From a virus (Duplodnaviria; Heunggongvirae; Uroviricota; Caudoviricetes): 7,566 nt of DNA. Under the pieces are notes generated by a model that was given only the letters and a program-made list of their open reading frames with translations, searched no databases and was not told the DNA's origin. Of this stretch, positions 4,621 to 5,414 are shown piece by piece. Made by a program: the position numbers and the translations under genes. The stretch is taken from IMG/VR virus record IMGVR_UViG_2698536559_000017, one strand, 5' to 3'. Every line of letters begins with the position of its first letter. Position 1 is the first letter of the stretch.

Positions 4621-5145
4621 ATGACAACACTGACACTGAACCACAAAAGCGGGGACATGAAAAGCCGGGGCGGAACACCTGACAAAACCACATCGGCGCA
4701 TAAAGTGATGCCCGGTAATCAGAAGAAGGCTCAACAGCGCAATAAACAGAAGTCCACAGAAGCGACACCGTGGCGGCATATGACCAGACGCCAGCGCAAA
4801 AACCGCCGACGGGTTAACCGCCTGATTGAGCTGTGGCCTGACTTATTCAACAGGGAAGCACCGAAGCCGCTTAAGGTGGGGATATTTGACGACCTGATGC
4901 AGGATATCGCCACCAGGGGGATGAAGTTCGGACCCGGTACATTACGTGCGGCGCTGGCATCTTATGCGCAGTGTCCGCGCTATTACCGTGCCCTGATTGC
5001 TGGTGGGGCGCGTTACGACCTGAAAGGCCAGCCATGTGGCGAGGTGACACCACAGGAACAGCAGGACGCAGAAACACGACTGATGGCGCTGAATGAAAGG
5101 CGCAAACGTCAGCGCCAGGCAGCAAAGGAGAAGGCAGGCGCATGA
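4621..5145 (+). CDS. ProQ/FinO-domain RNA-binding protein with a basic N-terminal extension
   Basis: Residues about 65..150 (LIELWPDLFNREAPKPLKVGIFDDLMQDIA ... TLRAALASYAQCPRYYRALIAGGARYDLKGQPCGEVTPQEQQDAE) closely parallel the ProQ N-terminal FinO-like domain as I recall it (FPHCFS ... PLKIGIFQDL ... [35 protein letters not shown]). The first ~60 aa are Lys/Arg/Gln-rich. The start is uncertain: ATG 4621 is taken, with ATG 4657 and 4708 as alternatives. Confidence 0.8.
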   Translation: MTTLTLNHKSGDMKSRGGTPDKTTSAHKVMPGNQKKAQQRNKQKSTEATPWRHMTRRQRKNRRRVNRLIELWPDLFNREAPKPLKVGIFDDLMQDIATRGMKFGPGTLRAALASYAQCPRYYRALIAGGARYDLKGQPCGEVTPQEQQDAETRLMALNERRKRQRQAAKEKAGA

Positions 5146-5414
5146 TTCACGACAGCAAAGCGGAAGCACTGGAAGCGCGTGGCCTGTACCGGAGAGCAGC
5201 GGCCCGATGGGCTGAGGTGATGCGGCTGGTGAACACTGATAAGGAACGGGAGCAGGCGGCAAAACGTCGCGCGGAATGTATCCGTAAGGCAGCACGCCCA
5301 CCCGTGAAGCTCGATCAGTACGGTGATGCAAAAGCCGCAATAAGCCGGACACAAAAGGAAATGGGACTGCATCAGCCCAACGGCAGCGCATTCAGGAAAT
5401 GGACGGGCGACTGA
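5142..5414 (+). CDS. PerC-family small transcriptional regulator (Pch/PerC-like), 90 aa
   Basis: ATG 5142 overlaps the FinO-gene stop (ATGA), with AAGGAG upstream. The N-terminus MIHDSKAEALEARGLYRRAAARWAEVM matches my recollection of the conserved AE-LE--GL-RRAA-RW opening of PerC/Pch proteins. Assignment is from memory, not a search. Confidence 0.5.
   Translation: MIHDSKAEALEARGLYRRAAARWAEVMRLVNTDKEREQAAKRRAECIRKAARPPVKLDQYGDAKAAISRTQKEMGLHQPNGSAFRKWTGD

Follow-up and report, generated by a model that had tools for sequence, protein, structure and literature searches.

What does the small open reading frame at positions 5142–5414 of a caudoviral DNA fragment encode, and what does its tight junction with an upstream FinO-domain gene mean? 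The fragment, hereafter the window, is a 7,566-nucleotide stretch of IMG/VR record IMGVR_UViG_2698536559_000017, analysed at its full length. An earlier note, drawn from the letters of the sequence, had read this frame as a prophage-borne PerC-like regulator, translationally coupled to the FinO-domain gene and potentially able to activate host virulence loci such as LEE.

Family membership and predicted fold of the PerC-like protein

Located on the plus strand (5142..5414), the gene opens with ATG, closes with TGA at 5412–5414 and encodes 90 amino acids. The earlier note named the lack of any PerC profile match as its refutation; searched against Pfam PerC (PF06069), the protein instead scores 114.9 bits (cut-off 22.6; E 2e-33), far above chance, in an alignment running end to end (residues 1–88 on profile positions 1–88 of 90), and the proposed family membership is thus borne out. 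A match was also obtained with phrog_994, and the protein is identical to RefSeq WP_062863895.1, annotated as “PerC family transcriptional regulator”. Residues D4, A7, L10, E11, G14, R17, R18, A19, A20, R22 and W23 are invariant among EPEC PerC, Sakai PchA, Sakai PchE and EcCIMP1_025, and alignment with these four proteins shows that the window protein keeps the motif D-x2-A-E-x-L-E-x2-G-x2-R-R-A-A-x-R-W together with R36, R43, C46 and R85; in a 52-sequence alignment, too, it retains all invariant residues of the family. Its size (~ 90 aa) and its location on a horizontally acquired element (a PICI-type island) agree with the family profile, whose members are almost restricted to Enterobacteriaceae genera, their plasmids and their phages (with one Pantoea plasmid), including the early regions of lambdoid phages. 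Two minus-strand open reading frames overlapping the gene (4942–5391 and 5109–5537) were treated as spurious on account of the 115-bit Pfam match found in the plus frame, and PADLOC assigned none of FinO, PerC and the adjacent hypothetical proteins to a defence system. The open reading frame is therefore a genuine and ordinary small regulator of the PerC/Pch family. Gram-negative PICIs frequently carry genes of this family (PMC6092414, PMC11773190), and those of E. coli PICIs have already been described; as a known kind of gene in a known setting, already annotated in RefSeq, it has little value as a discovery.

The AlphaFold2 model predicts helices at residues 5–13, 16–29 and 33–51, with a pLDDT of ~ 90 over residues 1–50, delineating an ANR-like three-helix domain (~ 5–51) followed by a less confidently modelled tail of ~ 40 residues with one helix (60–73). 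A sequence search of the PDB with the PerC profile produced zero matches even at E 10, and Foldseek comparison of the model with the PDB gave nothing below E 1, the hits consisting of generic MIT/TPR-like helical bundles. Because neither search gave a significant match, no function can be claimed from the fold, and the model contains no recognisable classical DNA-binding fold.

Profile comparisons point to a kinship with the ANR (AraC negative regulator) family. The NCBIfam profile ANR_neg_reg (NF033650) is matched by 42 of the 52 PerC-family members at E ≤ 0.1 (best 1.6e-7), and proteins of 64–79 aa found by the PerC profile score 33.8 and 32.3 bits with it, enough to reach its cut-off of 32. 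The window protein aligns with profile positions 8–54 of 54 at 15.8 bits (E 0.009), below that cut-off of 32. In addition, the spacing of A7-E11-A19-W23-V26 in PerC equals that of A10-E14-A22-W26-A29 in ANR (PMC4983702), and the predicted structure combines three helices with the conserved A, E, A and W of that family. P0095, a widespread natural variant of 54 aa that is 96% identical to the window protein, consists of exactly this three-helix domain; its name at NCBI is “PchE”. These results indicate, at the level of sequence profiles, that the N-terminal three-helix domain of PerC is homologous to the ANR family. Viewing both as one superfamily would bring a concrete mechanism within reach, in which a three-helix protein would target complexes of the H-NS type.

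A phage satellite and its ssb–finO–perC operon

The prophage setting assumed by the earlier note does not hold. Upstream of the operon, the window encodes a P4/D5-type primase-helicase (1378–3195, plus strand; Pfam D5_N, DUF5906 and Pox_D5; TIGR01613; phrog_864 at 641 bits), directly followed by an iteron-type replication origin (3208–3440) with more than 10 copies of GGTGAACAG / CTGTTCACC around an AT-rich core. An island 99.97% identical to the window (L001) displays the gene order int, DUF6387, HTH, YlcI/YnfO, Icd-like, DUF4222, primase, SSB, FinO, PerC, hypotheticals and a second PerC gene, and its annotation includes no structural or lysis genes and no AraC-family partner gene. Among related islands, two (L009 and L010) have a Pfam match to AlpA, another (L003) carries TerS, and L006 and Sakai Sp7 carry a capsid module as in cf-PICIs. 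The integrase, the AlpA-type regulator of the relatives, the primase with its adjacent iteron origin, the SSB gene, a size within ~ 10–18 kb and the lack of lysis and tail genes are all PICI features, and by its gene content, as annotated in L001 and L002, the element can be classified as a PICI-type phage satellite of ~ 16–17 kb in the E. coli chromosome, with DUF4222/RgdR present.

The upstream operon member, ssb (4121–4564, plus strand), is recognised by Pfam SSB (57.6 bits), TIGR00621 and phrog_44. From position only, we infer a probable promoter region for the operon at 3440–3484 (plus strand), directly upstream of a frameshifted homologue of ECs_1586 (GTG at 3484); the sequence of this candidate is not conserved. 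In Sakai Sp7, a polycistronic ECs1586–ssb–pchE transcript has been mapped by RACE, with the pchE transcript start 10 nt upstream of ECs1586 (PMC7369912). At the other end, 39 nt past the perC stop, the terminator scan detected an intrinsic terminator composed of a hairpin and a T-run (5453–5485, plus strand; -16.8 kcal/mol, z -3.4), which is kept in L002 and L008 and likely constitutes the 3′ end of the ssb–finO–perC transcript. It is followed by a convergent terminator hairpin on the minus strand (5487–5513; GCCGCCA...TGGCGGC then T7), supported by terminator scan and folding; in L002 and L008 its stem stays paired through a double change, G-C to A-T. This hairpin may be either an insulator of the operon or the end of a short leftward RNA. 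Its identification as the prophage sRNA HnrS (PMC13502914) was rejected by location, since that RNA is encoded in late regions of lambdoid prophages and not in islands of this kind. Accordingly, finO and perC very probably share one transcript, and perC is probably the last gene of an orf–ssb–finO–perC operon just to the right of the replication origin; the mapped Sakai Sp7 transcript and the terminator after perC support this operon.

The FinO domain attributed to the gene upstream of perC (4621–5145, plus strand, 174 aa) was confirmed by a Pfam ProQ/FinO match (PF04352, 86.6 bits against a cut-off of 27) and by PDB matches to solved structures of ProQ (5nb9, E 9e-13) and FinO (1dvo, E 2.5e-11), as well as NMB1681 and RocC. 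A basic and probably disordered N-terminus (residues 1–60) precedes the FinO/ProQ domain (62–166), without a ProQ-type C-terminal domain, and the NCBIfam FinO and ProQ models match below their cut-offs. Across the entire window, an Rfam search at E ≤ 1 yielded only spurious matches to plant and animal miRNA precursors, all on the iteron origin, and no C4/CI-type or other known RNA that might be a FinO partner.

The two genes meet in an ATGA overlap at 5142–5145, as the earlier note had read it (gcATGAttc at 5140–5148, with the perC ATG at 5142–5144 and the finO TGA at 5143–5145). The same junction is present in L001, L002, L008–L011 and L015; in L016 the genes either share the same 4 nt or leave a 2-nt gap, according to the ATG chosen, and in L003 there is a 23-nt overlap. 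Overlaps occur at 6 of the window's 11 same-strand junctions (4 ATGA and 2 ATGnnTGA), so that ATGA is the normal junction style of this operon and provides no evidence of a dedicated two-regulator device. Moreover, coupling is expected of a downstream gene without its own ribosome-binding site, whereas perC has a Shine-Dalgarno-like AAGGAG (5125–5130, plus strand) in the finO 3′ end, 11 nt upstream of its start; L001, L002, L003, L008, L011 and L015 share this element in the form AAAGGAG. Translational coupling would therefore not be distinctive of this pair.

Competing roles and a proposed mechanism

A dedicated, translationally coupled two-layer module, in which FinO and PerC would depend on each other or have common targets, seems very improbable. 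Tight finO–perC junctions (ATGA or similar) are kept in islands of E. coli, E. ruysiae and E. albertii, a Lelliottia island (L033) has ssb, finO and perC side by side in another order, and the pair was found in 221 of the 5426 complete E. coli genomes. However, perC directly follows ssb, with equally tight packing and no finO, in Sakai Sp7 (as pchE), L006 and L017–L019, FinO occurs without a perC partner in L004 and L005, and PerC phylogeny and sequence similarity are independent of FinO presence; the own Shine-Dalgarno sequence of perC and the generic nature of overlaps in this operon argue in the same direction. Judged by these islands, finO is optional, a gene inserted between ssb and perC in some of them, and the pair is not obligate. 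Of the earlier proposal that both regulators are made together, the common transcript stands as very probable, while an obligate pairing is not supported, each gene occurring without the other. Their recurrent, optional adjacency nonetheless offers a natural experiment (islands with versus without finO) for studying mobile-element FinO-domain proteins. Distinctly unlikely, too, is a role of perC in the service of the satellite, counter-silencing or activating island or helper-phage genes with host effects as a by-product. Such a role would fit the fixed position of perC as last gene of the replication operon, its location elsewhere directly upstream of a capsid module (L006, Sakai Sp7) or TerS (L003), the lower GC content of the flanks (0.40–0.51, against 0.56–0.59 for ssb–finO–perC) and the near confinement of the family to Enterobacteriaceae mobile elements, but it sits poorly with the steady expression of Sakai pchE without induction and its decrease on SOS induction. 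Nor are there recognisable packaging genes downstream in this island, which has two perC paralogues, and no published PICI study assigns the gene a life-cycle role. The PerC-domain genes of lambdoid phages are in the early region, and these phages normally use their own late-gene regulator. A late-gene activator role was accordingly rated low, on the early-region location of these genes and the uninduced expression and SOS drop of pchE.

Virulence activation, which the earlier note had raised by analogy, would make the window protein a PerC/PchABC-type activator of LEE1 (ler), through which the satellite would turn on type III secretion whenever its host is LEE-positive. The protein belongs to PF06069 with all invariant residues kept, LEE activation is ascribed to some PerC homologues of PICIs (PMC6092414), and ler rises more than 2-fold under PchE over-expression. 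Furthermore, 2015C-4136CT1 (NZ_CP027550.1), the only complete genome with the identical element, is probably LEE-positive, as inferred from a FinO-PerC+escN composite query that matched 2 places against 1 for FinO-PerC alone. Nevertheless, this role is highly unlikely: the activators PerC and PchA are just 45% identical to the window protein, its nearest tested relatives are not LEE1 activators (PchE, at 52–54% identity, affects it little, and EcCIMP1_025, at 53%, is a repressor), ABU 83972 and APEC IMT5155 are examples of genomes that carry the pair but returned no match to the LEE gene escN, and the gene occupies a satellite replication operon rather than the vicinity of effector genes in a lambdoid prophage, like pchA. 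The analogy is thereby weakened, and specific LEE activation by the window protein is not expected from the behaviour of its relatives, although an effect on LEE1 of either sign is possible in LEE-positive hosts. The opposite polarity, that of an ANR-type anti-activator or repressor binding an AraC/XylS protein, H-NS or FlhD in the manner of Aar, is unlikely without being remote. Homology of the N-terminal domain to ANR, the dose-dependent repression of LEE1 by EcCIMP1_025, for which an anti-activator role has been proposed, the binding of Aar to AggR, H-NS and, weakly, FlhD, and the wide occurrence of P0095 as the three-helix domain alone would all accord with it. By contrast, the ANR score of the window protein is below the cut-off, its conserved tail residues M74, G75 and R85 are not found in ANRs, the island has no AraC-family partner gene, and PerC and PchA activate rather than repress.

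The reading we favour, with somewhat better than even confidence, is that this PerC regulator alters host expression via H-NS-type silencing, from the ssb–finO–perC operon of the satellite. By analogy with PchA and Aar, it would most likely alter H-NS/StpA/Hha silencing complexes at AT-rich loci, horizontally acquired or encoding surface structures. With the nearest tested relatives, PchE and EcCIMP1_025, as a guide, the likely targets would be global and include curli (csgD), flagella (flhDC) and adhesins. H-NS is removed from the LEE1 promoter by PchA, whose action is wholly dependent on H-NS/StpA/Hha/YdgT (Fukui 2016), and Aar binds directly to H-NS (Santiago 2017) and to AraC-type activators including AggR, with weak binding to FlhD. 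However, H-NS was not co-precipitated with PchA and Pch was located on DNA by ChIP (Fukui et al.), so the protein–protein mode of ANRs may not transfer to PerC. A bolder and highly speculative extension of the favoured reading would see a FinO chaperone and a PerC/ANR-type H-NS modulator as an optional two-gene cassette closing the ssb operons of enterobacterial satellites, expressed without induction and rewiring the H-NS-controlled flagella, curli and LEE of the host at both the RNA and chromatin levels, with FinO maybe acting on adjoining terminator-ended transcripts, including a candidate minus-strand RNA of ~ 55 nt (5487–5545).

Relatives and related systems

EPEC PerC (pMAR2 perABC) and EHEC PchA/B/C have the Pfam family, the N-terminal motif and the approximate size in common with the window protein. 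The settings differ, the PerC gene following that of the AraC-type PerA on a virulence plasmid and the PchA/B/C genes being in lambdoid prophages. Identity to Sakai PchA equals that to EPEC PerC, at ~ 45%, and lies below that to PchE and EcCIMP1_025, which argues against close kinship with group 1 (PchA/B/C); likewise, pchA resides in the lambda-like Sp4 near lysis genes, in contrast to the satellite replication operon of the window. For the action of PerC-like proteins on LEE1, the primary study is reportedly that of Porter et al. 2005, the results of which are cited here via later papers.

The closest parallel in genomic position is PchE (ECs_1588, group 3), encoded in Sp7 / O-island 51 of O157:H7 Sakai (EcCIEDL933, a capsid-forming PICI). 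Both proteins have 90 aa, and both genes are distal in an ssb operon that has a P4-type primase and a DUF4222/RgdR gene on its left, the group 3 position on P4-like/PICI elements. However, pchE comes right after ssb, without finO and with a capsid/terminase module downstream, whereas the window island has finO in between and hypothetical genes downstream. PchE has little LEE effect but represses csgD and curli and induces flagella, mostly under plasmid over-expression (PMC6265319, PMC7369912). Another close relative, EcCIMP1_025, comes from EcCIMP1 of E. coli MP1 (Pick et al. 2025), an experimentally mobilised PICI in which it is a solitary gene of the accessory region, on the opposite strand and not behind ssb or finO; it represses LEE1 in C. 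rodentium (PMC11773190), and its ANR similarity was remarked by the same authors. The reported effects of the closest tested homologues (52–54% identity) conflict, comprising activation, no effect and repression. Since these relatives show little LEE effect, LEE repression or action on curli and flagella, the label “PerC family transcriptional regulator” should not be equated with “LEE activator” for the subgroup to which the window protein belongs.

For its operon partner, the likeness to plasmid FinO/FopA and to ProQ lies in the FinO domain, the basic N-terminal extension and the location on a mobile element, and the difference in scores under both equivalog cut-offs and in a gene placed in a satellite replication operon. 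Finally, the ANR family (Aar, Cnr, Rnr; NF033650) and PerC appear to form a continuum at the profile level, with a common three-helix domain of ~ 55 residues, the same Ala/Glu/Ala/Trp spacing and an action on H-NS-controlled genes. Unlike ANRs, which mostly accompany AraC-type activators and repress, the window protein adds to this domain its extra conserved C-terminal tail.

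A PerC-family gene on a satellite island

The plus-strand open reading frame at 5142-5414 of the window (perC; ATG start, 90 codons, coordinates including the stop) encodes a protein that matched Pfam PF06069 with 114.9 bits (E 2e-33; gathering score 22.6), its residues 1-88 aligning with positions 1-88 of the 90-position profile. The PerC-family identity proposed in an earlier note, which had named the lack of a PerC profile match as its refutation, therefore stands. The protein also matched phrog_994, is identical to RefSeq WP_062863895.1 (annotated 'PerC family transcriptional regulator') and retains all family-invariant residues (D4, A7, L10, E11, G14, R17, R18, A19, A20, R22, W23, R36, R43, C46 and R85). 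The family is small: a profile run against 1.84 billion cluster representatives gave 322 proteins at E<=0.001. Homologues identified in the analysis came nearly all from Enterobacteriaceae, including their plasmids and phages. In a joint alignment with the window protein as reference, identity was 98% for the copy in the island of strain EC12 (L002), 69% for other island copies, 53% for EcCIMP1_025 (from the phage-inducible chromosomal island, or PICI, of E. coli MP1), 52-54% for PchE and 45% for PchA of E. coli O157:H7 Sakai, 45% for PerC of enteropathogenic E. coli (EPEC) and 40% for a second PerC gene of the same island.

A ~16-17 kb island of E. coli 2015C-4136CT1 (NZ_CP027550.1; L001), lying between rcnR and thiM, contains the window at 99.97% identity. 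The island encodes, in order, an integrase, DUF6387 and a small HTH gene; YlcI/YnfO on the opposite strand; Icd-like, hypothetical, DUF4222 and P4/D5-type primase genes; a pseudogene, a hypothetical gene, SSB, ProQ/FinO and PerC; and about ten hypothetical genes, the second PerC-family gene and Ant/BRO remnants. Its annotation contains no lysis or tail genes. Gene order is unchanged in the EC12 island (94% identical), AlpA (PF05930) follows the integrase in related islands, and the region 3' of perC holds a small terminase gene in L003 or a full capsid-protease-portal-terminase module in L006 and Sakai Sp7. Directly 3' of the primase stop codon, at 3208-3440, more than 10 copies of GGTGAACAG(T)/CTGTTCACC in both orientations flank an AT-rich core, a predicted iteron-type replication origin of the satellite; these repeats account for spurious Rfam miRNA-precursor matches at 3236-3416. 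The overall layout is that of Gram-negative PICIs and capsid-forming PICIs and differs from that of a prophage.

Several further features of the island were recorded. The sole notable difference between window and L001 is a 95-nt tandem repeat (two copies vs three) within a frameshifted homologue of Sakai ECs_1586, which starts at GTG 3484 (window 3484-3800, repeat 3512-3703; L001 14906-15192); its GEGYAxAHPELISAFMTTAA motif recurs in an intact paralogue at 7312-7566. The second PerC-family gene, ~40% identical to the first, stands alone near the far end of the islands (L001 22551-22847; L003 13379-13681; L008 17294-17590), and an internal stop interrupts the EC12 copy. The DUF4222 gene (1082-1381, +), which overlaps the primase start, is a 30% identical positional homologue of RgdR (ECs_1581), a published O-island 51 regulator of the LEE virulence island and motility, so that small host-directed regulators on the island may number three or more, the RgdR-like gene and two PerC-like genes. 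A downstream HTH-domain protein (L001 19800-20333) gave a weak PADLOC match to mad1, a MADS system component (27 bits, N-terminal 35 residues only), probably through a merely shared HTH motif.

Overlap, operon and the optional finO gene

The gene upstream of perC (finO, 4621-5145, +) indeed encodes a FinO-domain protein, matching PF04352 (86.6 bits) and the solved structures of ProQ, FinO, NMB1681 and RocC. The ATGA overlap is likewise present, the perC start (5142-5144) overlapping the finO stop (5143-5145) in gcATGAttc (5140-5148). All three elements of the original observation, the PerC and FinO-domain reading frames and their start/stop overlap, are therefore real. Their interpretation as a translationally coupled module of two regulators made together fares differently. 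ATGA overlaps occur at 4 of the 11 same-strand junctions of the window (DUF4222/primase, finO/perC and two downstream) and 8-nt overlaps at another two, so that such overlap is the ordinary packing style of the element. A conserved AAGGAG inside finO, 11 nt 5' of the perC ATG, further indicates that perC has its own ribosome-binding site, and in finO-less islands perC lies ~10-15 nt behind ssb with its own Shine-Dalgarno sequence. Genuine finO-perC coupling is possible but would be nothing particular to the pair.

RACE and RNA-seq in Sakai mapped a polycistronic ECs1586-ssb-pchE transcript starting 10 nt upstream of ECs1586 (PMC7369912), and in the window perC is followed after 39 nt by a strong intrinsic terminator (5453-5477 plus T-run, -16.8 kcal/mol, z -3.4). 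We infer that a promoter immediately to the right of the origin drives one transcript of ssb (4121-4564, +), finO and perC, and the two regulators would thus be made together as operon members, not as a pair-specific feature. These three genes (4121-5414) have a GC content of 0.56-0.59 vs 0.40-0.52 in flanking genes and intergenic regions, which suggests a separate cassette origin or a different H-NS exposure. An imperfect palindrome (GTTTCATTAATCGCAA...TTGCAATAAATGAAAC, 5560-5629), conserved in L002 and L008, precedes a 57-aa reading frame (5630-5803, +), the first gene of the next operon, for which a family search gave no match; it resembles an operator, with autoregulation possible.

The finO-perC pair was found in 221 of 5426 complete E. 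coli genomes (at least 80% of a 794-nt query covered) and also in E. ruysiae and E. albertii, while a Lelliottia island (L033) holds the contiguous trio in the order perC-finO-ssb. Nevertheless, finO appears to be an optional member of the cassette that islands have acquired or shed at the ssb-perC boundary, because perC directly follows ssb without finO in Sakai Sp7, L006 and Enterobacter, Kluyvera and Shimwellia islands, finO occurs without perC in other E. coli islands (L004, L005), and PerC similarity is independent of finO (71-75% between the finO-less L006 protein and finO-linked copies vs 59-72% among the latter). A dedicated two-regulator module is consequently not supported.

The FinO protein has a basic extension at its N-terminus and lacks a C-terminal domain of the ProQ type; in architecture it resembles plasmid FinO and FopA, which work on cognate antisense RNA. 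No such RNA was identified, an Rfam scan of the window giving nothing relevant. A single lead emerged, a convergent terminator hairpin on the minus strand (5513-5494 plus T7, within 5487-5560), which has no reading frame upstream and whose stem L002 and L008 maintain through a double, compensatory change from G-C to A-T. This hairpin may mark the end of a short RNA running leftward, a candidate sRNA beside the FinO-domain gene, and a weak promoter-like TTGTTG-18-TATAGT, chosen by eye, would yield ~55 nt; alternatively, it could be a mere operon insulator or bidirectional terminator.

PerC fold and ANR kinship

An AlphaFold2 model from 39 sequences comprised a confident three-helix unit (helices 5-13, 16-29 and 33-51; pLDDT ~90) and a weaker C-terminal part with one helix. 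A PDB sequence search with PerC and a fold search with the model gave no match and no significant match, respectively, and classical DNA-binding folds such as HTH or RHH are not apparent. Profile comparisons show the N-terminal unit to be homologous to the ANR (AraC negative regulator) family. Window PerC covered nearly the whole ANR model at a sub-threshold 15.8 bits (cut-off 32 bits), 42 of 52 PerC-family members matched it at E<=0.1 (best E 1.6e-7), and the PerC profile retrieved 64-79-residue proteins (E ~1e-10 to 1e-9) reaching the ANR cut-off (33.8 and 32.3 bits). PerC A7, E11, A19, W23 and V26 are spaced exactly like A10, E14, A22, W26 and A29 of the ANR proteins (PMC4983702). The ANR prototype Aar, with 63 residues and three helices, lacks DNA-binding activity, partners with AggR and H-NS, and alters H-NS-DNA complexes (PMC5570504). 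AraC-family activators are characteristic companions of ANR proteins, and on EPEC pMAR2 (L013 17176-18756) the founding perC gene shares the perABC operon with PerA, such an activator; given this arrangement and the homology, PerC might act on PerA too.

A widespread truncated allele (P0095; L008-L011, 10001-10165), of 54 residues, 96% identical to window PerC and named 'PchE' by NCBI, occupies the same ssb-finO-perC setting with the same 4-nt overlap. It stops exactly behind the three-helix domain, which may by itself constitute a functional unit; alternatively, the truncated copies may be in decay.

Targets, mechanism and known relatives

Activation of LEE, as ascribed to PerC/Pch proteins, is not supported for this gene, whose closest tested relatives behave unlike PerC. 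PchE has little effect on LEE; when over-expressed, it causes strong repression of csgD and curli together with induction of flhDC and flagella, its gene being expressed at a steady basal level that drops on SOS induction (PMC6265319, PMC7369912). EcCIMP1_025 represses LEE1 in C. rodentium dose-dependently (PMC11773190). The host was searched for LEE with a composite query of finO-perC and 302 nt of escN. NZ_CP027550.1 gave two places vs one with finO-perC alone (more sensitive settings; second place not displayed), so the strain with the identical island is probably LEE-positive, whereas ABU 83972, APEC IMT5155 and many other carriers gave one place only (finO-perC) and no escN match. Because of these carriers, and of PerC-domain genes (some annotated YfdN) in early regions of lambdoid temperate phages (SfV, SfII, Stx2c phages), perC is not tied to LEE; an effect on LEE1 in a LEE-positive host is possible and could go either way.

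PchA activates LEE1 only under H-NS/StpA/Hha/YdgT repression and reduces H-NS occupancy at its promoter; Pch was detected on DNA by ChIP, while co-precipitation with H-NS failed (PMC4764244). By analogy, the best-supported reading is that window PerC would modulate H-NS-type silencing complexes, with DNA, a nucleoid protein or some other regulator as its possible binding partner.

Overall, the observation is confirmed, and part of its interpretation is supported. Membership of the PerC family, the FinO domain, the overlap and co-expression hold, whereas LEE activation and a dedicated coupled module of two regulators are not supported. Useful by-products are the recurrent yet optional finO insertion in satellite ssb-perC operons and the profile-level PerC-ANR link, a likeness that the EcCIMP1 authors had noticed informally. 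The gene itself, as yet uncharacterised, belongs to a known family and occupies a setting described before, PerC-family genes being common in such islands (Fillol-Salom 2018, PMC6092414; Pick 2025, PMC11773190; Enterobacter survey, PMC13612085), among which the pchE-bearing O-island 51/Sp7 is counted (PMC3378721).
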